From Pseudomonadota bacterium (lineage in GTDB: Bacteria; Pseudomonadota; Gammaproteobacteria; Xanthomonadales; Xanthomonadaceae), in assembly GCA_023392975.1 (NCBI GenBank), contig JAEWNA010000348.1:1-62018 (forward strand): a stretch of 62,018 bases of DNA. The letters run 5' to 3'. This document shows, piece by piece, positions 152-11,966 of this stretch. Under the pieces are notes generated by a model, which had not been told where the DNA came from, did no database searches, and worked only from the letters and a program-made list of their open reading frames with translations. Positions within the stretch are counted from its first letter, which is position 1. Every line of letters starts with the position of its first letter. A program made the translations under genes and the position numbers.

Positions 152-1030
<879 letters not shown>

Positions 1031-1064
1031 TCCGACCCCGCATCGACGGCATTCCGGCGTCACG

Positions 1065-1093
1065 AAAAACCCGCGGGAAACCGCGGGTTTTTT
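1065..1093. terminator. Bidirectional intrinsic terminator between tsf and the GH13 gene
   Basis: AAAAA-CCCGCGG-gaaa-CCGCGGG-TTTTTT between convergent genes. Confidence 0.9.
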
Positions 1094-1111
1094 GTCGTCG
1101 GGCGTGGGCGA

Positions 1112-3040
1112 TCAGCCGCCGCAGCCCGCGGGCCGGGGCGACACGCCCGCGACCGGGCACAGCTCGTACACCTGCGCCGCGTGCGCGGGCACGACGAGCG
1201 TCGTGCCGAGTGGGGACATCGGCGTCCCGGCGAACACGTCGCGCGCGCTCGTCGCACCGCGCAGGCCCTCGGCGAAGCGTTCGAGCGCCAGCGTCACCGG
1301 CGCGTCGTTGCGACCGAGCACGATCATCAGCCGCTGCGCGTCGTCGTCGCGGAAATACACGTAGACGCCCTGCGCCGGCAGGTAGTGCAGGAAGCGGCCG
1401 TGCTGGACGGCGGTCGCGGTCTTGCGCCAGTTCAGCAGCGCGCGCATCCAGGCCTGCAGGGCGGCCTGCCGTGGCGACAGCCCTACGCCGGTGAAGGCGC
1501 TGACTGCGTCGCCCGGCCATCCGCCGGGGAAATCGCGCCGGGTAGCGGCATCGTCGCGTTCGACCGGGCTGGTCATCAGGATCTCGCTGCCGTAGTAGAA
1601 CTGCGGCACGCGCGGGATCGTCGCCAGATACAGCAGCGCGAGACGATACGCCGCATCGTCCTCGCCCAGCACGCTCCACAGCCGCGGCATGTCGTGGTTG
1701 CCTTCGATGGCGACCAGCGCCGACGGCATCACATACAGCCGATCGTTGGCCATGGCTTCGTAGAGCCGGCGCAGGCCGGTACCGGCGTATTCGCCTTCCG
1801 GTTCGACCAGCGCCTTGCGCAGCGCTTCCTCCAGCGGGAAATCCATCATGCTCGGCATGCCGGGCTTGCCGTCGACCCAGCCGTTCGTCCAGCGCGCGAC
1901 GATCGCCGGATTGCCGCTCCACTCCTCGCCGACCATCGAGAAATGCGGGTATTCCCGCAGGATGCGCCGCGTCCACTCGGCGAGGAAGGCGTTGTCGGAA
2001 TAGCCGTAGGTGTCGACGCGCAGCCCGGACAACCCGGCGTATTCGATCCACCAGATCGCGTTCTGGATCAGGTAGGTCGCCAGCAGCGGCTGGCGCTGGT
2101 TCAGATCGGGCATCGACTCGACGAACCAGCCCTGGGTGAAGTCGTCGCGATCGACCTGCGCCGAGTACGGGTCGGCGAGCGCGGTGCGGCCATGGCGCGT
2201 CGGCACGAACCGGCCGGCGTGGGTGATCCAGTCGCGCGTCGGCGGATCGCGCAGCCAAGGATGGCCGCTGCCGATGTGGTTGGGCACCACGTCCTGGAGC
2301 ACGCCAAGTCCGTGCGTGCGCGCCTCTGCGACGAAATCCCGGTAGTCGGCGTTGCTGCCGAAGCGCGGATCGATGCGGTAGAGATCGGTCGCGGCATAGC
2401 CGTGGTAGGAGTACGCCGGCTGCGCGTTCTCGATCAGCGGCGTGGGCCAGACCTGGGTGAAGCCCATGCCGGCGATGTAGTCGAGGTGGTCGCGCATCCC
2501 GCGCAGGTCGCCGCCGTGGCGCGCGACGGGATTGCCGCGATCGGTGACGTCGGCGTAGCCGGCGACGCGGTCGTTGCGCGGATCGCCGTTCGCGAACCGG
2601 TCCGGCATGAGGTTGAGGATGGCGTCGCGGCCGTCGAATCCCCGTCGCTCGGCCGAGTCCGGCACGCGCACATCGAGCGCGTAGCGCAGCGTGCGCACGC
2701 GCCCGTCGCGCGCGAAGCGCAGGACGATCTCGCCGGGCGTGGCGTCGGCGGCGATGTCGAGGTTCACGAACAGGTAGTTCGGGCTGTCGCCGCGGGTCGT
2801 GCCGACCAGCCGCGCGCGCGGGTTCGGCGGCAGCGTCGCCTCGGCATCGGCGATGCCCGGCGCCTGCAGCATCAGCTGGAGCCGGGGTTCGTGCATGCCC
2901 ACCCACCAGTTCGGCGGCCAAGCGACGATCTCCCCGGCCCGGGCCTGTGCCGGGGCGAGCACCACCAGCAGCCACAGGACCATCGCCGCGAGCGCGGCTC
3001 CGGCCCGACCGGAACGCCCCGGTGGATGTCTGGATGGCAT
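1112..3040 (-). CDS. GH13 cyclomaltodextrinase/neopullulanase-like alpha-amylase family protein, exported
   Basis: Signal peptide; WPPNWWVGM N-domain; PDRFANGD; YHGY; catalytic regions DVVPNH, GLRVDT, GEEW, NHD. Start taken at ATG 3040. Confidence 0.88.
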   Translation of the reverse strand: MPSRHPPGRSGRAGAALAAMVLWLLVVLAPAQARAGEIVAWPPNWWVGMHEPRLQLMLQAPGIADAEATLPPNPRARLVGTTRGDSPNYLFVNLDIAADATPGEIVLRFARDGRVRTLRYALDVRVPDSAERRGFDGRDAILNLMPDRFANGDPRNDRVAGYADVTDRGNPVARHGGDLRGMRDHLDYIAGMGFTQVWPTPLIENAQPAYSYHGYAATDLYRIDPRFGSNADYRDFVAEARTHGLGVLQDVVPNHIGSGHPWLRDPPTRDWITHAGRFVPTRHGRTALADPYSAQVDRDDFTQGWFVESMPDLNQRQPLLATYLIQNAIWWIEYAGLSGLRVDTYGYSDNAFLAEWTRRILREYPHFSMVGEEWSGNPAIVARWTNGWVDGKPGMPSMMDFPLEEALRKALVEPEGEYAGTGLRRLYEAMANDRLYVMPSALVAIEGNHDMPRLWSVLGEDDAAYRLALLYLATIPRVPQFYYGSEILMTSPVERDDAATRRDFPGGWPGDAVSAFTGVGLSPRQAALQAWMRALLNWRKTATAVQHGRFLHYLPAQGVYVYFRDDDAQRLMIVLGRNDAPVTLALERFAEGLRGATSARDVFAGTPMSPLGTTLVVPAHAAQVYELCPVAGVSPRPAGCGG

Positions 3041-3162
3041 CGCACTTCCCCAGCGTGATCGACACCGGATGGTGACACGCCTCACGAAAGCACGCGCACG
3101 CCCTTGCAGGCCAGGCTGCCCCACGAACCGGGATGAAGCGCAGAACATCATGAATTCGCACG

Positions 3163-3182
3163 GAACTGTGACGCAGTTCATC
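3163..3182. promoter_or_regulatory. Palindrome GAACTG-N5-CAGTTC overlapping a CRP/Clp-like site (TGTGA-N6-TCAtc)
   Basis: Read directly in the divergent GH13/TBDR intergenic region. Assignment to CRP/Clp is by consensus similarity only. Confidence 0.4.
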
Positions 3183-3186
3183 AGCG

Positions 3187-3233
3187 ACCTAACAGTTTCG
3201 TGAGTGTCGGGCGGAAGGACGCTTGGCTACGCT
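3187..3233 (+). promoter_or_regulatory. lux-box-like site ACCTAACAGTTTCGTGAGTG (CT-N12-AG) plus candidate -10 TACGCT
   Basis: CT at 3189-3190, AG at 3203-3204, -10 at 3228-3233. The box would centre near -43.5 of the implied start, typical of LuxR-activated promoters. Confidence 0.55.
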
Positions 3234-3266
3234 GCCCCGCATCCCCCGACGATTGGAATCCCCCAG

Positions 3267-5504
3267 ATGCGCATCCGGCTCCACGCCCTTCCCCTCGCGA
3301 TCGGCGCGGTCCTCGCCCTCCCCGCGCAGGCACAGGACACGCCCCACCCGGCCACGGAGGCCGCCACCGACGATCGGGCGACCGAGCTGGACACGGTCGT
3401 GGTCACCTCGACCAAGCGCGAGGAGCGCATGCAGGACGTGCCGGCCGCGATCGGCGTGATCGGCGCGAAGGACATCGAGACCGCCGGCCTGACCAGCGCC
3501 GCCGACATCGCGCCGCTGGTGCCGGGCTTCGTGATGGTGCCGCTGTTCGGCTCCTCCGGCTACAACCCGGTGATCCGCGGCCTGTCGACCACGATCGGCG
3601 AGCCGAACGTCGGCTTCTTCGTCGACGGCGTGTACATGCCCTCGCGCGCCGGCCTGGATTTCATGCTCGACGACAACATCCAGCGCATCGAGGTCGCGCG
3701 CGGCCCGCAGTACGCGCTCTACGGCCGCAACACCTTCGCCGGTGCGATCAACGTGGTCACCAAGGCGCCCGCGGGCGAGTTGGGCGGCAACGTGCGCGCG
3801 GGCGTCGGCAGCGACGGCCTGCGCGAAGGCGGCGCTACGCTCGCCGGCCCGCTGGTCGGCGACCGGCTGTTCTTCCGCACCGGCGTCCAGGCCCGCAACG
3901 AAGACGGCTTCTACGAGAACGGCAAGACCGGCGGCGCGCTCGACTGGAGCCGCCGGCGCAGCGCCTACCTCACGCTCGACGCCTATCCCGGCGAGCGTTT
4001 CGACGCGCGCCTGAACGTGCTGTACGAACGCCTGCGCGACGGCGATGTGGCCCAGCGCTACGTGTCCAACAACGGCGGCTTCGTCGCGCGCTACAACGAC
4101 CTGCAGCAGTTCTTCGGCGACGTGCCCACGCTGGATGGCGGCTACGCAGTCACGCCCGGCCACTTCGATCGCGACAACCTGATCGGCGCGCTGTCGCTGC
4201 ACTACGACGCGGATGCAGTGAAATTCACGTCGATCACCGCCTACAACCGGCTCAAGCTCGACCAGTTGTACGACTCGGACTACACCCCGGTCGACATCGC
4301 CGAGGCCGGCACGCGCGGCACCCAGAAGCAGTGGAGCCAGGAGTTCACGCTGACCTCGCAGGGCGAGCACCGCGTGGATTGGCTGGCCGGGGTCTACGTC
4401 TACGATTTCGAGGACGACCGCACCGACCTCAACCGTTTCGTCGGCAGCGCCGCGCCGCTGGGCGGCGTGCTCGCCGACGTGGTCGAGCAGACCCGCAGCC
4501 GCGCGCTTTTCGGCCAGGCGACCTGGCACATGACCGACCGCTGGTCGCTCGGGCTGGCGATGCGCTACACGGTCGAGACCAAGTCGGTGGACGTGGTGCA
4601 GACCAACCTGCCGAGTGCGACCAACCCGACCGGCTCGATGCTGACCACGCATCTGTCGCAGCGGTTCGAGCCGTTCACGCCGGGGCTGTACCTGACCTGG
4701 AAGCCGACCGACCGCGCGACCTGGTACGCCAGCGCGGTGAAGGCGATCAAGGCCGGCGGCTTCAACACGCTGATCACCAACGGCGCGATCGCCCCGTCCG
4801 AACGCAGCTACGACGCCGAGCGCAGCATGAACTACGAGATCGGCGGGAAGTTCAGCCTGCTCGACGGCCGCCTGCTGTTCGAGGCCGACGTCTACGCGAT
4901 CCGCTGGGACGACCAGATCGTGCGCAGCATCGGCCAGCTCGGCGCGGTGCTCAACGTCAACGCCGGCCGCACGTCCTCGCGTGGCGTCGAGACCAGCTTC
5001 GAATACCGCCCGAGCGCGGCGTGGACGCTGCGCGGCGGCGCCAGCCACAACCGTTCGGTCTACGACGACTACGTCTTCCCGCTGATCGGCGCGATCGGCG
5101 GCGATCCCGACCTGTCCGGCAAGCGCCTGCAGTACAGCCCGGCCTGGACCGCGAACCTCGGCGCGATGCGCACCTGGTCGCTGGCCAACGACTGGTCCGG
5201 CTACGTGCGTGGCGATGCGCAGTACCGCTCGGACATGGCCGCGGTGCAGACGGCGACGGCCACCATCCCCGCCGCGACCCGCGTGAACGTGCATGTCGGC
5301 GTGCGCAAGGGCCGTGTCGAACTCACCGCCTGGGTCAACAATCTGTTCGACGAGGATTCGGCGACGTCCGCGGTGTTCCTGACCAACCCGGCGACGCAAT
5401 TCGAGTTCGCCAGCCACCAGCGGGCCGGCCTGCAGTTGTTCCAGCCGCTGGTCTCGGCGCCGGAACCGCGCACGTTCGGCCTCGGCCTGCGCTACGCGTT
5501 CTGA
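3267..5504 (+). CDS. TonB-dependent receptor
   Basis: Signal peptide ending AQA; TonB box ELDTVVVTS; plug motif IEVARGPQYALYGRNTFAGAINVVT; NLFD; C-terminal Phe. Confidence 0.95.
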   Translation: MRIRLHALPLAIGAVLALPAQAQDTPHPATEAATDDRATELDTVVVTSTKREERMQDVPAAIGVIGAKDIETAGLTSAADIAPLVPGFVMVPLFGSSGYNPVIRGLSTTIGEPNVGFFVDGVYMPSRAGLDFMLDDNIQRIEVARGPQYALYGRNTFAGAINVVTKAPAGELGGNVRAGVGSDGLREGGATLAGPLVGDRLFFRTGVQARNEDGFYENGKTGGALDWSRRRSAYLTLDAYPGERFDARLNVLYERLRDGDVAQRYVSNNGGFVARYNDLQQFFGDVPTLDGGYAVTPGHFDRDNLIGALSLHYDADAVKFTSITAYNRLKLDQLYDSDYTPVDIAEAGTRGTQKQWSQEFTLTSQGEHRVDWLAGVYVYDFEDDRTDLNRFVGSAAPLGGVLADVVEQTRSRALFGQATWHMTDRWSLGLAMRYTVETKSVDVVQTNLPSATNPTGSMLTTHLSQRFEPFTPGLYLTWKPTDRATWYASAVKAIKAGGFNTLITNGAIAPSERSYDAERSMNYEIGGKFSLLDGRLLFEADVYAIRWDDQIVRSIGQLGAVLNVNAGRTSSRGVETSFEYRPSAAWTLRGGASHNRSVYDDYVFPLIGAIGGDPDLSGKRLQYSPAWTANLGAMRTWSLANDWSGYVRGDAQYRSDMAAVQTATATIPAATRVNVHVGVRKGRVELTAWVNNLFDEDSATSAVFLTNPATQFEFASHQRAGLQLFQPLVSAPEPRTFGLGLRYAF

Positions 5505-5524
5505 GCACGACCGGGGACTGTGCG

Positions 5525-6463
5525 ATGACCGCCTCCGATGCCATGACGCCCGATGCGTACTACGCGCTCGCCACGAGCCGCAATCTCGGCATCGTCAGCC
5601 GCGAGGAGCAGGCCACCCTGCGCCGTTCGCGGGTGGCGATCGTCGGCATGGGCGGCGCCGGCGGCATCTACCTGACGACGTTGACCCGGATGGGCATCGG
5701 CCGCTTCAGCATCGCCGACTTCGACACCTTCAGCGTCGGCAACATGAACCGCCAGGCCGGCGCCATGTCCAGCACGGTCGGTCGGCCGAAGACCGAGGTC
5801 ATGGCGGAGATCGCCCGCGACATCCATCCCGGCGCCGACATCCGCGAATTCCCCGGCGGCGTCGGTCCGCACAACATCGAGGATTTCCTCGAAGGCGCGG
5901 ACGCGGTGCTCGACGCGATCGACGTGTTCGCGCAACCGGCCCGCCTGCTGATGTACCGCACGGCGCGCCGCATGGGCATCCCGGTGTTGTTCGGTGCGCC
6001 GTTGGGGCTGTCGGGCACGTTGGGCGTGTTCACACCCGACGGCATGACCTACGAGGACTACTTCGACCTGCACGACGACCTGTCGCCGTACGAGACCATG
6101 ATGCGGTTCATCGTCGGGCTGGCGCCGAAGGGCCGCCACTGGACCTACATGGATTCGACGCACGTCGATCCGCATGCGCAGACCGGGCCTTCGTCGGCGG
6201 CCGCGATCAGCCTGATCGCGGGCATGGTGGCCACCGAGACCCTGGTCGCGCTGCTGAAGCGCCGCCCGCTGCGCGCGGCGCCGGCGTTCTGCCAGTTCGA
6301 CCCGTATCTCGGGACGTTCGTGCACGGACGCCTGCGCTGGGGCAATCGCGGGCCGCTGCAGCGCCTGAAGCTACACCTGGTCGACAGGAAGTTCGCAGGC
6401 ATGCGCGCGGAATTCGACAAGGCCGGATTCCAGGCGTTGCCCGACGCGGACCCCGCGCCGTGA
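5525..6463 (+). CDS. ThiF/E1-like adenylyltransferase (PRK08223-like, stand-alone)
   Basis: SRNLG..EEQATLRRSRVAIVGMGGAGG; ADFDTFSVGNMNRQ; GRPK; DAID; C-terminal GNRGPLQRLK. No CxxC zinc motifs. Confidence 0.9.
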   Translation: MTASDAMTPDAYYALATSRNLGIVSREEQATLRRSRVAIVGMGGAGGIYLTTLTRMGIGRFSIADFDTFSVGNMNRQAGAMSSTVGRPKTEVMAEIARDIHPGADIREFPGGVGPHNIEDFLEGADAVLDAIDVFAQPARLLMYRTARRMGIPVLFGAPLGLSGTLGVFTPDGMTYEDYFDLHDDLSPYETMMRFIVGLAPKGRHWTYMDSTHVDPHAQTGPSSAAAISLIAGMVATETLVALLKRRPLRAAPAFCQFDPYLGTFVHGRLRWGNRGPLQRLKLHLVDRKFAGMRAEFDKAGFQALPDADPAP

Positions 6464-8085
6464 GCGCCCTGCATCGCCTGCTGGCGCGCCTGCGCATCGC
6501 GATGCTGGTGCGCAAGGTCGAACGCGCCGACAGCCTGCGCGACATCCAGCGGTTCGCGCTGCGCCGGCATGCGGACGCGCCCGCGCTGGCGACGCCGACG
6601 GTGCGCTGGACCTATCGCGAGATCGAGGACCGCGTGCTGCGGTTGGTCGCCGCCTGGCGCGCCGCGGGCGCGCGCAAGGGCGCACGCGTGTGCGTGATGC
6701 TGCCGGACGAATGGCTGCAACTGGTCGTCCGCTTCGCGGCGACCGAATCCGGCGTCGTCCTCGTCGGGTTCACGCCCGCGCATGCCGCGGTGATCGCATC
6801 GCAGGCGGTGCGCGACCTGGCCCCGGCGCTGATGATGCTCGACCTTTCGCGGATGCCTGCGGGGTTCGCAGAGGCGCATCTGGCCGCCGGTGGCGCACCG
6901 ATCTGGGACTGCGGGCCGGACGGCGACATTGAGGCCCGTCTCGCCGCGGCGACGCCGACCGCCAGCGACGAAGCGATCGGTCCGGACGACGCGCTGGCGC
7001 TGGGTTTCACCTCCGGCACCTCGGGCGCGCCGAAGATGCTGGCGCTGAAGCATGCGCCCTACCTGCACAGCGTCCGCCTGCTGTTGCTCAATCTCAGCGA
7101 CCCGCCGCGCGAGCGCTCGCGGATGCTGGTCGGCATTCCGCTGTCGGGCGCGGGCAGCGGCGTGGTGCTGCCGACCCTGCTCGGCGGCGGCGAGATGATC
7201 CTGGCGAAGGCCTACACCGCGGAGGCGCTGATCGAGGCGCTGCGCGCCGAGCGCCCGTCGCACCTGTTCGTCACCCCGAGCCTGCTGATCGACCTGCTGG
7301 ACCATCCGGCGCTGGCCGACGAGGACATGGCCAGCCTGCGTCAGGTGATCTACGGCTCGGCGACGATGCCGGTGGCGAAGCTGCGCGAGGCGCTGATGCG
7401 CTTCGGCACGATCTTCCAGCAGGGCTACGGCATGTCCGAGGCGCTGCCGCCGATCACGATGCTGCCACCCGGCGCGCACGTCGACGACGGACTGCCGCCG
7501 ATGCAGAGCGTGCTGTCGTCCTGCGGGCGCGTCGCCCGCGGCGTCGGGCTGGAGGTACGGCGCGAAGACGACGCCGTCGCCCCGGCCGGCGCCATCGGCA
7601 GGATCTGGGTGCGCACGCCAACGGTGTTCGAAGGCTATGTCGGCCGCCCCGATCTCAACGGCGACGTGCTGCGCGACGGCTGGTACTTCACCGGCGATCA
7701 TGGCTACTTCGACGCCGCCGGCCACCTGCACGTGCTCGACCGCCAGCAGAACCTGATCGACCTCCCGGAGGGCCGGCTGTATCCGCGCCTCGTCGAGGAC
7801 CGGGTGCACGAATCCCGCCACGTGAAGGAGGCTGCGGTGGTGTTCGCGCGGCGGCAGGTCTGGCTGTGCGTGTCGCTGCGGCGCACCAGCCGCGCGCTCG
7901 ACCGCGCGATGATCGAGGCGGAAATCCGCGCGCACCTGGCCGAGAGCCTCCCCGACTGGCAGCGACCGGAACGCCTCCTGATCGTCGACGAACTGCCACG
8001 CAGCTTCCTCGCCAAGCTGCTGCATCGCGAGGTCCGCGACGGCATCGAGCACGGCACGCTGGGCACGGGCGACGCCGCGCGATGA
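6460..8085 (+). CDS. ANL-superfamily AMP-forming ligase (acyl-CoA synthetase/amide ligase-like)
   Basis: A3 FTSGTSGAPK, A5 GYGMSE, A7 YFTGDHG, A10 LPRSFLAK. GTGA overlap with the ThiF stop. Confidence 0.9.
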   Translation: MSALHRLLARLRIAMLVRKVERADSLRDIQRFALRRHADAPALATPTVRWTYREIEDRVLRLVAAWRAAGARKGARVCVMLPDEWLQLVVRFAATESGVVLVGFTPAHAAVIASQAVRDLAPALMMLDLSRMPAGFAEAHLAAGGAPIWDCGPDGDIEARLAAATPTASDEAIGPDDALALGFTSGTSGAPKMLALKHAPYLHSVRLLLLNLSDPPRERSRMLVGIPLSGAGSGVVLPTLLGGGEMILAKAYTAEALIEALRAERPSHLFVTPSLLIDLLDHPALADEDMASLRQVIYGSATMPVAKLREALMRFGTIFQQGYGMSEALPPITMLPPGAHVDDGLPPMQSVLSSCGRVARGVGLEVRREDDAVAPAGAIGRIWVRTPTVFEGYVGRPDLNGDVLRDGWYFTGDHGYFDAAGHLHVLDRQQNLIDLPEGRLYPRLVEDRVHESRHVKEAAVVFARRQVWLCVSLRRTSRALDRAMIEAEIRAHLAESLPDWQRPERLLIVDELPRSFLAKLLHREVRDGIEHGTLGTGDAAR

Positions 8086-9476
8086 ATGCCGGATCCCGGA
8101 CGAGCGCGTGGCGACTGCTGGGCTACGGCAGCGGCAGCATGCTGCTGGCGTCCTACTACCTGATCAGCGGCGCCTACCTGCTGTTCGCGACCGCGATCCT
8201 CGGCCTGCCGGCCGGCACCGCCGGCCTGATCATGGCGGCCTCGACGCTGTGGGACGCGGTGATCGACCTGCCGCTGGGCTGGTGGTCGGACCGCACGCGC
8301 TCGTCGCGGTTCGGGCGGCGGCACGGGTTCCTGATCGCCGGCGGAATCGGCACCGCCGCGCTGACGGCCACGCTGTGGGCGACGCCGCATGGACTCGGCG
8401 CCACCGCGACCGCGCTGTGGCTGGCGCTGACGATGATCGCCCTGAAGACGGCGATCGCCGCATTCATGATCCCGCACACCGCGCTGGGCGGCGAAATCGT
8501 CGACGGCTACGACGCAAGGACGGTTGCGCAAGGCTACCGCGCCGCGTTCCAGGTCCTCGGCATGGTGTTCGCACTGGTCGGCAGCAACCTGATCTTCTTC
8601 CGCCCGACCGCGGCCTATCCGCAGGGCCAGCTCAACCCGGCCGCCTACGCGCCGATGGGCATCGCCTGCGCGGTGCTGGTGCTGCTGGCGACGGTCTCCA
8701 CGCTCGCCGGCACCTGGTCGTTCATTCCCCGGCTGCGCGCGCCGGCATCGGCAGCGCCGACCGGTTGGAAGGCGATCGGCGATCTGCTGCGCGACCGCAA
8801 CCTGCGCGCACTGGTGCTGACCATCCTCTGCATCGAGCTGACGCTGCAGATCGGCATCTCGCTCGGCAACCACGTCAACACTTACACCTACGGCCTGTCC
8901 GGGCCGCAGATGGGCGTGCTCGGCCTCGCCCTGCTGGGCGCCGCGGCGCTGTCGCAACCGCTGTGGATCCGGCTCGGTCGCCGCTACGACAAGAAGCCGA
9001 CGCTGATCGTGGCCGCGCTGGTGGCGGTCGCCGGGTTCACCCTCGGCCCGCTGACGCACGTCGCCTGGGGCTGGTTCCCGCTGGCGCCGGCGGATCACGT
9101 GGTGAAGACGCTGCTGCCGTTCCAGGTGCTGGCCGGCGCCGGCACCGGCGCGTTCTGGTCGCTGCCCTACGCGATGGTGGTGGACTGCGCGGTCGACCGC
9201 GAACGCCGCACCGGCGAATCCACCGCCGGCAGCAGCACCGGCCTGTACATCTTCGCCTACAAGGTCGGCAGCAGCGTCAGCATCGCCGCCAGCGGCTGGC
9301 TGCTGCGCGGCATCGGCTACGACCCCACCCTCGCCGCGCAGGCGGAGGCGACGCGCTACTGGCTGGCGGTCGGCCCTGCGCTGCTGATCCTCGCCGGTGC
9401 GCCGTTCGTGCTGTGGGCGCTGACCGGATATCGTCTGTCGCGCGCCGCATTCGCGCCGACGCCGCCGACGGGATGA
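8082..9476 (+). CDS. MFS transporter, glycoside-pentoside-hexuronide (MelB/GPH)-like
   Basis: WDAVIDLPLGWWSDRTRSSRFGRRH motif, about 12 hydrophobic segments, GYDP near the C-terminus. ATGA overlap with the ligase stop. Confidence 0.88.
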   Translation: MNAGSRTSAWRLLGYGSGSMLLASYYLISGAYLLFATAILGLPAGTAGLIMAASTLWDAVIDLPLGWWSDRTRSSRFGRRHGFLIAGGIGTAALTATLWATPHGLGATATALWLALTMIALKTAIAAFMIPHTALGGEIVDGYDARTVAQGYRAAFQVLGMVFALVGSNLIFFRPTAAYPQGQLNPAAYAPMGIACAVLVLLATVSTLAGTWSFIPRLRAPASAAPTGWKAIGDLLRDRNLRALVLTILCIELTLQIGISLGNHVNTYTYGLSGPQMGVLGLALLGAAALSQPLWIRLGRRYDKKPTLIVAALVAVAGFTLGPLTHVAWGWFPLAPADHVVKTLLPFQVLAGAGTGAFWSLPYAMVVDCAVDRERRTGESTAGSSTGLYIFAYKVGSSVSIAASGWLLRGIGYDPTLAAQAEATRYWLAVGPALLILAGAPFVLWALTGYRLSRAAFAPTPPTG

Positions 9477-9513
9477 GACCCGACCGCAGTCACGGTCGTC
9501 CACGGACGCAGGC

Positions 9514-9522
9514 TGCTAGGAT
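9514..9522 (+). promoter_or_regulatory. Candidate extended -10 (TGcTAGGAT) for luxR
   Basis: TGnTAnnnT match about 75 bp upstream of the luxR ATG, after a small hairpin (CGACCG-N6-CGGTCG, 9481-9498). Confidence 0.35.
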
Positions 9523-9595
9523 GGGCCACGGTCGGCGCGATGCCGATCGCGGATCCACGGCGCAGGGGGGCCTACACCGGGGGAGCATCCGATCC

Positions 9596-10387
9596 ATGCA
9601 GGCACTGGCGGCGCCCGACCTCGCACCCGACGCGCTGGGCAAACGCGAACGCTCCGCCGTCGCGGACATGACGGCACGGCTGCGCACGGCGAAGGGCCAC
9701 GACGATGTCGTGTCCTGCCTGACCGACATCCGCGAATGGCTCGATCTGCAGGAACTGCTGCTGTTCTCCTCGACGCTGTCGTATTCCGACCACCGCATCT
9801 ATGGCGTCGGCCATGATCCGGCGTGGATGGCACTGTATCTGCGCGAGGGGTTCGCCTATGCCGATCCGATCGTCAACGAGATCTTCGAGGGCGGCCGGTT
9901 CTTCCCGCGGCCGCCGCTGATCCGGCTCGGTGCCGCCGAGCGCAGGGCGTTCCCGCACGGGACCCTGTTTCGCCGGTTGAGCGACGCGGCCCGCGACTTC
10001 CGTCGGCCGCTGGACGGCTTTTCCGGCGGTCTGGTCGAAGGCGGCCGGTTCATGCTGATGTCGGCACCGATGCGCGACCGGGCCGACGCCGCCGACGGTG
10101 TCGGCCCGGTGCTCGCCGCGCTCTATCCCGCGATGATGCAGACCCTGATCCGCCTCGGCACCGCCGCGCCGTCGGATATCCGGCTCAGCCTGCGCGAATT
10201 GCACCTGCTCGAACTGCTGGCCGAGGGCCACAGCGACACCGAGATCGCGTCGACGCTCGGCATCGCGCAGGCGACGGTGCGCTTCCACCTGCAGAACCTG
10301 TTCCGGAAGCTGAAAGCGCGCAATCGCTGCCACGTGATCACGATGGCACACCGCCACGGGCTGCTGCCGATCCAGCGCCCCGGCTGA
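9596..10387 (+). CDS. LuxR-family regulator with autoinducer-binding domain (LuxR solo)
   Basis: W-x3-Y-x8-DP (WMALYLREGFAYADP); C-terminal HTH LSLRELHLLELLAEGHSDTEIASTLGIAQATVRFHLQNLFRKL; GGAG upstream of the ATG. Confidence 0.9.
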   Translation: MQALAAPDLAPDALGKRERSAVADMTARLRTAKGHDDVVSCLTDIREWLDLQELLLFSSTLSYSDHRIYGVGHDPAWMALYLREGFAYADPIVNEIFEGGRFFPRPPLIRLGAAERRAFPHGTLFRRLSDAARDFRRPLDGFSGGLVEGGRFMLMSAPMRDRADAADGVGPVLAALYPAMMQTLIRLGTAAPSDIRLSLRELHLLELLAEGHSDTEIASTLGIAQATVRFHLQNLFRKLKARNRCHVITMAHRHGLLPIQRPG

Positions 10388-10390
10388 ACT

Positions 10391-11110
10391 TCAGCCGGAC
10401 CAGCCCCCGCCCCCGCGCGGACGATGCTGGAAGGCCACTTCCTCGTACGGCTGCACCACCACCCAGCCCTCGCCCTGGAATTTCAGCTGCAGGCTTTCTC
10501 CCGAGCCGCGGCCGACGAAGGTCTTCAGGCTCACGTCCAGCACCAGCTCCGGCAGCAGCCCGCCGGACCAGGCCACGGTGGCGTTGGGATCGGTGAACAC
10601 CGGGCCGGTCGCGGCGCTCACCGGCAGGGTCAACGGATCGTAGTGCGAGGTGATGGCGACCAGCCCGTGGCCGTCGAGACGGACGTTGAACAGGCCGCCG
10701 CTGAGCATGCCGGCGGCCCGGCGCAGCATCCGGATCTCGCTGCCGATGCTCGACTCGAACGCGAGCACGTCGTTGCCGTTGATGAAGATCGGCTCGCCCT
10801 GCAGGCGCAGCAGCGTGATCTTCTTGCCGGCATCGGCCAGGTACACCCGCCCGCGGCCCTCGATCCGCATCAGGTGCATGCCCTCGCCGCTGATCGCCTT
10901 CTTGAACAGCGTGCCCAGGCCCTGTTCGAGCAGGCCCTGCCGGGTGAAGCGGATCTGGCCCTTGCGGGCGATCATCGCCCCGGCCTTGGCCCAGACCATG
11001 CCGTCGACGCGCGCTTCCAGCATGCGCTCGCTCTCCAGCTCGAACGGCGCGTCGACGAGGTCGCGCTCGCTGGTGTGGGCCAGGAATTCATCGAGGGTCT
11101 TGATCGACAT
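10391..11110 (-). CDS. AIM24 (DUF124) family protein
   Basis: [48 protein letters not shown] and VVVQP motifs. Confidence 0.85.
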
Positions 11111-11249: not shown

Positions 11250-11966
11250 ATGTCGACCCTCGCCTACCGTCGCGTCCTGCTCAAACTCTCCGGCGAGGCC
11301 CTGATGGGCGACGAGGACTACGGCATCGACCCCAAGGTCATCGGCCGGCTCGCCCGGGAGGTCATCGAGGCCCGCGAGGCCGGCGCCGAGATCGCGCTGG
11401 TGATCGGCGGCGGCAACATCTTCCGCGGCGCGGGCCTGGCCGCCGGCGGCATGGACCGGGTGACCGGCGACCAGATGGGCATGCTCGCCACGGTCATCAA
11501 CGCGCTGGCGATGCAGGACGCGCTGGAGAAGCTCGGCGCCAAGTGCCGGGTGATGAGCGCGATCAAGATCAACGACGTGTGCGAGGACTACATCCGTCGC
11601 CGCGCGGTGCGCCACCTCGAGAAGGGCCGCATCACCATCTTCGCCGCCGGTACCGGCAACCCGTTCTTCACCACCGACTCGGGCGCCGCGCTGCGCGCGA
11701 TCGAGATCGGCGCCGACCTGCTGCTGAAGGCGACCAAGGTCGACGGCGTCTACGACAAGGACCCGAAGAAGCACGCCGACGCGACCCGCTACGACACCCT
11801 CACCTACGACGAGGTCATCGCCCGCGACCTGCAGGTGATGGACACCGCCGCGTTCGCGCTGTGCCGCGACAGCGCGCTGCCGCTGCGGATCTTCGACATG
11901 AGCCAGCCGGGGATGCTGCTGAAGATCCTGCGCGGCGACAAGATCGGGACGCTGGTCACCGCCTGA
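11250..11966 (+). CDS. pyrH: UMP kinase
   Basis: [27 protein letters not shown]. Confidence 0.99.

Follow-up and report, generated by a model that had tools for sequence, protein, structure and literature searches.

A stretch of 62,018 nucleotides from a bacterium of the Xanthomonadaceae (assembly GCA_023392975.1, contig JAEWNA010000348.1), hereafter called the window, carries five co-oriented genes that encode a TonB-dependent outer-membrane receptor (TBDR), a ThiF-family protein, an adenylate-forming ligase of the ANL superfamily, a transporter of the MFS_2 family and a LuxR-family regulator. Comparisons with other genomes revealed that the five genes are one accessory, horizontally moved module, which is inherited as a unit and packed like an operon. 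As to its function, we favor, tentatively and with somewhat less than even confidence, a module for the biosynthesis and export of an N-acyl amino acid-like amide or oxazolone, equipped with uptake by the TBDR and with a dedicated LuxR protein that resembles receptors of N-acyl homoserine lactones (AHL). The five genes are:

3267-5504, plus strand: TBDR of 745 amino acids, Plug and barrel domains (Pfam)
5525-6463, plus strand: ThiF-family protein (PF00899 in Pfam, NF006077 in NCBIfam)
6460-8085, plus strand: ANL-superfamily adenylate-forming ligase of 541 amino acids, domains AMP-binding and AMP-binding_C
8082-9476, plus strand: MFS_2 (GPH-type) inner-membrane transporter of 464 amino acids (PF13347)
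9596-10387, plus strand: LuxR-family regulator of 263 amino acids, GerE helix-turn-helix and a divergent ligand-binding domain

Orientation and families of the genes, which had been proposed in an earlier sequence-only reading of this DNA, were confirmed by Pfam and NCBIfam, and the junctions given there were recovered by reading the sequence. The TBDR and ThiF genes are separated by 20 nt. The GTG start codon of the ANL gene overlaps the ThiF stop codon (GTGA), the ATG of the MFS_2 gene overlaps the ANL stop codon (ATGA), and 119 nt (9477-9595) lie between the MFS_2 and LuxR genes. Since the five genes abut or overlap, there is no space between them for a carrier-protein or precursor-peptide gene, the absence of which had also been noted there. 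Because of the G+C content of about 70%, long spurious frames are plentiful in the window; the genuine genes were fixed via family matches and orthologues.

Inheritance of the five genes as a unit

Of 41 related genomes, six (G000, G002, G017, G018, G020 and G021) contain orthologues of all three of the ThiF, ANL and LuxR genes, with identities of 74-98% for ThiF, 74-98% for ANL and 49-99% for LuxR; none of the three was found in the other 35. As these genomes are kin, the co-occurrence is presented as a pattern and not as a statistic. The chromosomal surroundings of the module in the window are:

152-1030: tsf, beyond the amylase gene
1112-3040, minus strand: secreted cyclomaltodextrinase/alpha-amylase, divergent to the TBDR gene, left flank
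10391-11110, minus strand: AIM24-family gene, right flank of the five-gene block
about 11250-11966: pyrH, beyond the AIM24 gene

Empty sites were read at the same chromosomal place in three module-free genomes. G016 shows the order pyrH-AIM24-amylase-tsf with about 215 nt in place of the five genes, G013 has pyrH, AIM24 and amylase genes adjacent to each other, and G019 has pyrH-AIM24-tsf, the latter two again without the five genes. Since the flanks persist at sites devoid of the module, the amylase and AIM24 genes lie outside the unit. The statement that the genes co-occur more often than by chance is based on the shared distribution together with these empty sites.

A scan with a ThiF alignment against one genome per species yielded 56 loci. 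The complete set in the order of the window was present in seven of them, all from Lysobacteraceae (L027, L028, L031-L035), and two further loci are truncated by the contig end within the ANL gene. In Aquimonas (L039), the same families, confirmed by Pfam, occur in the order ThiF-TBDR-ANL-MFS_2-LuxR with 35-61% identity, at another chromosomal place and with quite different neighbours. A second scan, with an ANL alignment against metagenome contigs, gave 69 loci, 54 of which contain an ANL gene with at least 33% identity; both gene orders recur here (L093 and L098). Thus, the expectation that the five genes co-occur elsewhere proved correct, in two gene orders and at two chromosomal sites. Among the genomes scanned, the module is rare and occurs in some Lysobacteraceae.

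The genes tsf and pyrH are usual neighbours. In the window they are kept apart by the amylase gene, the five-gene module and the AIM24 gene, and relatives show every intermediate state. A terminator scan returned three terminator-like sites, which is not above shuffled sequences (mean 2.5). An Rfam search of positions 2800-10600 revealed no known RNA or riboswitch in the leader up to an E value of 1; its sole match was an 18.6-bit small RNA within the TBDR gene.

DNA nearly identical to positions 3000-10500 of the window (67-73% of sampled words) was detected in 15 public runs from 11 studies, labelled as biofilm, sludge, bioreactor, sediment, rhizosphere or plain metagenome, one with a coded organism and one without a label; the best-matching run may be the source sample. 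Communities of wastewater, bioreactors and biofilms often include carriers, and most of the carriers found are metagenome-assembled genomes. Four runs, including the RNA-Seq run X17, were examined as assembled contigs. Among the matches listed for X17, eight contigs of low depth (2-4x, 221-428 nt) touch all five genes, one of them bridging TBDR and ThiF (5415-5635) and another one the gap between MFS_2 and LuxR (9472-9715). They are not taken as evidence of transcription, since DNA carry-over is possible and contigs hide level and strand. Joints in X17 with sides of 20-21 letters look like other organisms or repeats.

Enzymes and transporters of the module

The ThiF protein of the window scored 355.6 bits against NF006077 (cut-off 266) and 157.8 bits against PF00899. 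It also matched PRK14851, a ThiF-nitroreductase fusion, and PRK14852, an acyltransferase-ThiF fusion, and it shares 48% identity with the corresponding part of such a ThiF-nitroreductase fusion in L057. Its nearest solved structures are the tRNA t6A dehydratase TcdA and MoeB. The protein has a single cysteine and no CxxC motif and is therefore unlike an activator of sulfur-carrier proteins. Across 25 family members, 42 columns are invariant, including a glycine-rich loop (G41xG43G44xG46G47) and aspartate residues (D130/D133).

The neighbourhoods of related ThiF genes point to N-acyl amino acids. The commonest neighbour, found nearby in 22 of the 56 loci, is an acyltransferase of about 300 amino acids resembling the acyltransferase portion of PRK14852; another acyltransferase group (9/56) matches the PEP-CTERM-linked model TIGR03694. 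In Vibrio, Neptunomonas, Alteromonas, Lamprobacter and planctomycetes, stand-alone ThiF genes lie 12-250 nt from synthases; PrsT, PrsK and PrsR occur near ThiF in related loci, and several ThiF proteins are fused to a nitroreductase-type domain. TyzB and the ThiF domains of OxzB and TrzS, with which the window protein was compared through family models, are described as catalyzing the ATP-dependent cyclisation of N-acyl amino acids to oxazolones (PMC10404671; PMC12856293; bioRxiv 10.1101/2020.06.11.147165), while the role of such proteins in planctomycetes has been called still enigmatic (PMC12479983). From the family models and the neighbours of its relatives, the window ThiF can be assigned to the N-acyl amino acid cyclase family, in line with its earlier placement among oxazolone synthetases and PEP-CTERM-associated proteins. 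The module itself contains neither an N-acyl amino acid synthase nor a nitroreductase-type flavin oxidase. A synthase of the TIGR03694 type was not found in the genome of the window either, the only match being luxI with 18.8 bits.

In a careful tree, the window-type ThiF proteins formed a clade of 13 rows (support 100/99), which also includes betaproteobacterial members and is sister to the synthase-adjacent ThiF proteins of Vibrio, Neptunomonas and Lamprobacter. In a second, quick tree, the ThiF proteins linked to ANL split into three or more clades, among which synthase-linked and nitroreductase-linked proteins are interspersed. Both trees were computed without characterised sequences (TyzB, OxzB and TrzS were not included). 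This swapping of partners is the best argument at hand that the ANL side may supply the same kind of substrate as the synthase. Two loci illustrate other arrangements with ANL genes: L045 has the order ThiF-ANL and L036 the order ANL-ANL-ThiF, followed by genes for a membrane-fusion protein and an RND pump.

The betaproteobacterial ThiF proteins of L036-L038 nest between that of Aquimonas and those of other Lysobacteraceae, which suggests transfer between the two classes. In an uncultured Methylobacillus (L038, 785-15639), the ThiF gene is co-oriented with three CobW/COG0523 genes and with genes for DUF1826, a MacB-type ABC pair and DUF3299; this string also includes a membrane-fusion protein and an RND pump, and it has no ANL and no synthase gene. 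In a locus of Pirellulales (L082, 10001-10842), ThiF was matched as three pieces in different frames and looks frameshifted.

The ANL protein matched PF00501 with 179.6 bits (AMP-binding, 1.1e-52) and PF13193 with 28.7 bits. Its orthologues align from residue 1, and the columns invariant in eight of them include T184-K192 (TSGTSGAPK), Y323G324, G412D413 and K519. The protein remained below the cut-off of all 25 NCBIfam acyl-CoA ligase models listed, the best being NF004837 (248.9 vs 476). Among solved structures it comes closest to 6sq8/6h1b (E 3e-49), which bear the deposited name 'fatty acid CoA ligase', and to FadD8 (1e-48). The former is presumably the amide-bond synthetase McbA.

The MFS_2 transporter scored 192.7 bits against PF13347. 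A glycoside substrate is not implied, since the model of glycoside symporters (TIGR00792) gave 91.3 bits, below its cut-off of 231. Of the proteins with solved structures, the MFSD2A lysophosphatidylcholine symporters are closest (E 9e-10), followed by MelB. The likeness to MFSD2A fits an amphiphilic substrate but is no sure guide to the direction of transport. Of 38 metagenome loci with at least 1.2 kb of sequence directly downstream of the ANL gene, 27 have an MFS_2 homologue there on the same strand; homologues checked in five loci all belong to PF13347. MacB-type ABC genes were present in 11 and RND pumps in three metagenome ANL loci. RND and membrane-fusion genes or MacB-type ABC genes come after ANL, ThiF and MFS_2 in related loci. 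Because efflux genes follow this trio in other lineages, export by MFS_2 is preferred here. The pair of ANL and MFS_2 genes is widespread (metagenome loci L093-L143), often with a second ANL gene, one or two ThiF genes and an RND or MacB-type exporter.

The TBDR possesses a signal peptide ending in AQAQ, a Plug domain (residues 55-160) and a barrel (266-693), and it has no N-terminal signalling extension. Its best NCBIfam model is the TonB-siderophore model TIGR01783 (172 bits, below the cut-off of 223.5), its best solved relative the pesticin/yersiniabactin receptor (E 3.8e-24). TBDR and LuxR genes occur together in the same five of the 54 metagenome loci and in none of the other 49, as well as in every genome locus long enough to include both. 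That the two travel together hints at a ligand needing active uptake.

The LuxR regulator and the region upstream of the receptor gene

The GerE domain of the regulator was clearly recognized (PF00196, 61.7 bits, E 5e-17), whereas the autoinducer-binding model PF03472 reached 14.8 bits (E 0.02), below the Pfam threshold of 23. Several orthologues (38-57% identity) carry a precomputed PF03472 match, and the LuxR protein of the metagenome locus L094 reached 21.5 bits. Searches with phmmer detected CviR over residues 66-252 (E 2.6e-14) as well as LasR and TraR over both domains. An AlphaFold2 model built from an alignment of 15 sequences (pLDDT 80.5, pTM 0.67) was matched by Foldseek to RhlR, CviR, SdiA, QscR, TraR and LasR with a probability of 1.00 (E down to 3e-10, TM 0.45-0.65); for the ligand-binding domains of LasR and CviR, target-normalised TM values of 0.68-0.78 were obtained. 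Hallmark residues of AHL receptors are, in TraR, W57, Y61, D70, P71, W85 and G113. Five of the six are kept: W77, Y81, D90, P91 and G141 show no variation among the 15 sequences, and the canonical LuxR of the same genome has W, Y, D, P and G at the aligned positions. We take W77, Y81 and D90 (with P91 and G141) to be the residues that touch the lactone carbonyl and the amide in the structures of TraR and LasR. At the position of TraR W85, the subfamily reads P or R, followed by an insertion of about 16 residues. The earlier description of this protein as autoinducer-binding thus holds with regard to homology, given the solved-structure matches, the alignment and the predicted fold, but not with regard to the Pfam model.

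The subfamily comprises 20 protein clusters at E <= 1e-8. No relatives were found at E <= 1e-15 in 400 further class-wide genomes, with up to six candidates scored per genome. From its restricted distribution and predicted fold, the regulator appears to be a dedicated, cluster-bound homologue of AHL receptors, as had been supposed. The designation as LuxR solo is correct for the locus, since the LuxI family (PF00765) had no match in the window, but it does not apply to the genome, in which another contig harbors the only match of the assembly:

Contig C196, 1-528, minus strand: luxI (108.5 bits)
Contig C196, about 776-1531, minus strand: canonical luxR, adjoining luxI (PF03472 112.8 bits)

Moreover, of 25 genomes from the genus, 24 yielded a luxI match, among them all six with the module. 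The match in G013 contains one TGA, and that in G003 is split into two pieces. A LuxR solo, LesR, is known from Lysobacter enzymogenes; the passages on it in PMC4886534 give no locus context, and the ThiF scan of species genomes returned no record of this species.

Because luxI is nearly universal in the genus, the regulator might respond to the cell's own AHL. The module would then be an ordinary output of quorum sensing, with neither a new signal nor a closed loop. This alternative, which concerns the ligand only and is compatible with either a biosynthetic or a catabolic function, is unlikely on balance but the most serious of those considered. Besides the luxI/luxR pair and its distribution, it can draw on the five retained hallmark residues. 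On the other hand, an ordinary AHL receptor would not be expected to be so rare and strictly bound to the module (six of the 41 relatives, G000 alone among 401 class-wide genomes with up to six candidates scored each). The altered W85 position with the insertion after it and the score of the Pfam model below the threshold also speak against AHL as ligand, and the linkage to the TBDR hints at an actively imported ligand, while AHLs need no active uptake.

Possible target sites were sought upstream of the TBDR gene, where the following elements were identified:

3163-3179: palindrome GAACTG-N5-CAGTTC, 88 nt upstream of the TBDR start
3188-3234, plus strand: further invariant blocks CCTA (3188-3191), TT (3196-3197), G.GAGTG (3200-3206) and GGCTA..CTG (3225-3234)

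The left half of the palindrome, AACTGTGAC (3164-3172), is invariant in nine aligned orthologous promoters, whereas beyond the window the right half persists in just two of them, L027 and L028; in L032 and L035 a different dyad is built on the same left half. The exact 9-mer occurs three times in the 3.6-Mb assembly and its reversed control four times, so that AACTGTGAC is no repeated genomic motif. The left block may be a candidate -35 element with an activator half-site, and TAACAG, located 17 nt after TGTGAC, is a possible -10 element; a simple sigma-70 scan gave no promoter match. The consensus of lux boxes is a 20-mer of the form CTG-N10-CAG. Inspected by eye, the palindrome is neither a canonical lux box nor a CRP/Clp-type site, since the spacing does not fit and the right half is not conserved. 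The lux-box-like site postulated in front of the first gene is therefore doubtful. Positions 3163-3202 also contain a longer inverted repeat, CACGGAACTGT / ACAGTTTCGTG, with arms of 11 nt that are 91% complementary and 22 nt apart. It brackets the putative core promoter, and its halves co-vary in some orthologues (AAAAC...GTTTT in L031), though the pattern is inconsistent. A conserved Fur- or Zur-like box was not seen in the promoter alignment, which was inspected by eye and not scanned with a matrix.

Function of the module and comparison with known systems

According to the reading we favor, the ANL enzyme would activate a carboxylic acid, most likely fatty or aryl, in the cytoplasm and supply an N-acyl amino acid-like amide, either by forming the bond itself or by feeding an acyl donor. 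ThiF would adenylate the free carboxylate of this amide and close the ring, giving a 5(4H)-oxazolone or another species activated in a similar way. As no nitroreductase is present, the ring would stay saturated and reactive. MFS_2, whose nearest solved relatives are lysolipid carriers, would move the amphiphile across the inner membrane, and the TBDR would return the product, a derivative or a complex across the outer membrane. LuxR would sense an acyl-amide ligand and regulate the operon through the conserved site that lies upstream of the TBDR gene. Here, we infer from the sequences the substrates, the product, the direction of MFS transport, the TBDR cargo and the ligand and target of LuxR. 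The product may be a signal or another kind of exported metabolite, and autoinduction of the operon is putative; the reading as a whole is a prediction. It gains from L094 (1-6878), where genes for ThiF, for a nitroreductase and for an N-acyl amino acid synthase of the FeeM type come after those for TBDR, ANL and LuxR. This locus physically ties the TBDR-ANL-LuxR set to a complete oxazolone-type gene set. Its synthase was read in two overlapping frames (5951-6640 and 6396-6878), for which a frameshift or an assembly error is possible.

Several findings weigh against this reading. Since L094 holds a synthase besides ANL, the ANL enzyme need not form the amide, and in this locus it would do something other than replace the synthase. 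The ANL protein of the window reaches similar scores with structures resembling amide synthetases and with those of acyl-CoA ligases, and its sequence alone cannot separate the two activities, so that it is a putative amide-forming enzyme. The link between ThiF and ANL is common without being strict: in 17 of the 54 metagenome loci, and in seven of 20 with ample flanks, a ThiF gene is located no more than 3 kb from ANL. L095 has the order TBDR-ANL-MFS_2-LuxR and no ThiF gene in about 5.7 kb upstream of the receptor gene, while the ThiF genes of L037 and L038 have neither ANL nor a synthase within 7 kb. MFS_2 proteins of known function (MelB, MFSD2A) are mostly importers, and export is deduced from the efflux genes of other organisms. 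Finally, a saturated oxazolone as expected here should be hydrolytically labile; even for unsaturated oxazolones, half-lives of hours have been given by De Rond et al., and acetonitrile has served as a quench for the labile compounds (PMC12856293).

It is conceivable, albeit improbable, that the module serves uptake and salvage or catabolism instead. TBDR and MFS_2 would then import a foreign or spent amphiphile, e.g., an N-acyl amino acid or the hydrolysis product of an oxazolone or lactone, which ANL and ThiF would re-activate or degrade, and LuxR would respond to the substrate in the manner of a catabolic regulator. Import is the natural function of TBDRs, and the characterised MFS_2 members are cation-coupled importers. 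The frequent pairing of ANL and MFS_2 recalls transport-coupled activation, for which LplT-Aas and FadL-FadD are examples, and as L094 has its own synthase, its ANL enzyme may act on something else. Oxazolones are described as hydrolysing within hours, so that a pool to salvage would exist. By contrast, the exporters (RND with membrane-fusion protein, MacB-type) directly downstream of ANL, ThiF and MFS_2 in several lineages fit release better, the unit contains no hydrolase, amidase or beta-oxidation gene, and the ThiF-family members characterised in the published accounts are biosynthetic.

A self-contained circuit of cell-to-cell signalling without LuxI, close to the proposal of the sequence-only reading, goes beyond the favored reading and is rather improbable. 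Here, ANL and ThiF would make an AHL-like N-acyl amino-acid heterocycle, i.e., an acyl-oxazolone or, with homoserine, a lactone closed by ThiF, which would be released by MFS_2, actively re-imported by the TBDR and sensed by LuxR, whose amide- and carbonyl-binding residues are retained. If true, LuxR ligands could be made by a new enzymatic route, and no earlier LuxR circuit would be known to take up its signal at the expense of energy.

Still less probable is a metallophore system, in which ANL and ThiF would build a chelator, MFS_2 would export it and the TBDR would retrieve the metal complex. Biosynthesis genes together with MFS and TBDR genes are the classic siderophore layout, and the best matches of the TBDR are of the siderophore type (TIGR01783, yersiniabactin/pesticin receptor). 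The ThiF gene of Methylobacillus L038 lies beside CobW/COG0523, DUF1826, MacB-type ABC and DUF3299 genes; these families are tied to zinc limitation in other bacteria, and L038 looks like a zinc-limitation cluster. Moreover, the copper chelator methanobactin is described as containing oxazolone rings. However, the zinc-related context comes from a single locus, the TBDR stays below the cut-off for siderophore receptors, no conserved Fur- or Zur-like box was seen by eye in the promoter alignment, the regulator is a ligand receptor of the LuxR type and not a metal sensor, and tyrazolones, according to De Rond et al., do not have the metal-binding thiolates of methanobactin. A carbohydrate utilization (CUT) locus, in which TBDR and MFS_2 would take up glucans in conjunction with the cyclomaltodextrinase and the two enzymes would be bystanders, is next to impossible and was ruled out by the empty-site comparison: although TBDR and MFS_2 pairs are typical of Xanthomonas CUT loci and a secreted cyclomaltodextrinase/alpha-amylase gene lies divergently beside the TBDR gene, the amylase gene persists in genomes without the five genes (L089, L090) and is not beside the module in G021 and Aquimonas, ANL-MFS_2 pairs are widespread in metagenome loci without any TBDR, and translational overlaps bind MFS_2 to ANL and ANL to ThiF.

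ThiF cyclases of N-acyl amino acids have been recognised recently, and the biological role of their products is still open; De Rond et al. suggested that oxazolones may act as signals. The module couples this enzyme family to a receptor of the quorum-sensing family and to two transporters, gained and lost as a unit. It belongs to a wider theme, ANL with MFS_2 and often ThiF, in many environmental bacteria without an N-acyl amino acid synthase. [quoted passage not shown] No description of the five-gene architecture, of a ThiF cyclase partnered with ANL, of a LuxR protein linked to oxazolones or of the ANL-MFS_2 theme was found by a literature search that did not cover supplements; the neighbourhood tables in the supplements of PMC12856293 and PMC10404671 may list such contexts.

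The systems OxzAB of Pseudoalteromonas rubra, TyzACB and TrzAS of Mycobacterium tuberculosis share with the module the same broad ThiF family. [quoted passage not shown] Loci linked to PEP-CTERM and synthases likewise contain stand-alone ThiF genes of this family, with PrsT, PrsK and PrsR nearby, whereas the window module is devoid of PEP-CTERM genes, its genome has no such synthase, and the partner of ThiF is the ANL-MFS_2 pair. Siderophore and metallophore loci also combine adenylating enzymes, MFS and TBDR in an operon-like block; the module differs from them in that it has no non-ribosomal peptide synthetase, no synthetase of the NRPS-independent siderophore type and no carrier protein, that its regulator is a homologue of AHL receptors and that no metal regulator or box was seen. 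In LplT-Aas, an MFS lysolipid-type transporter is genetically coupled to an ANL-type enzyme as well, yet Aas has an acyltransferase domain and LplT belongs to MFS_1, while the ANL protein of the module has adenylation domains only and its transporter belongs to MFS_2. The LuxR solos PluR and PauR of Photorhabdus sense non-AHL products of neighbouring genes, photopyrones and dialkylresorcinols, respectively. Like these, the module has a LuxR-family receptor beside enzymes for a putative small lipophilic metabolite and no luxI at the locus. What separates it from PluR and PauR is that its LuxR protein keeps the polar residues W57, Y61 and D70 (TraR numbering), that the genome harbors luxI, and that the unit also includes transporters, namely a TBDR and an MFS protein.

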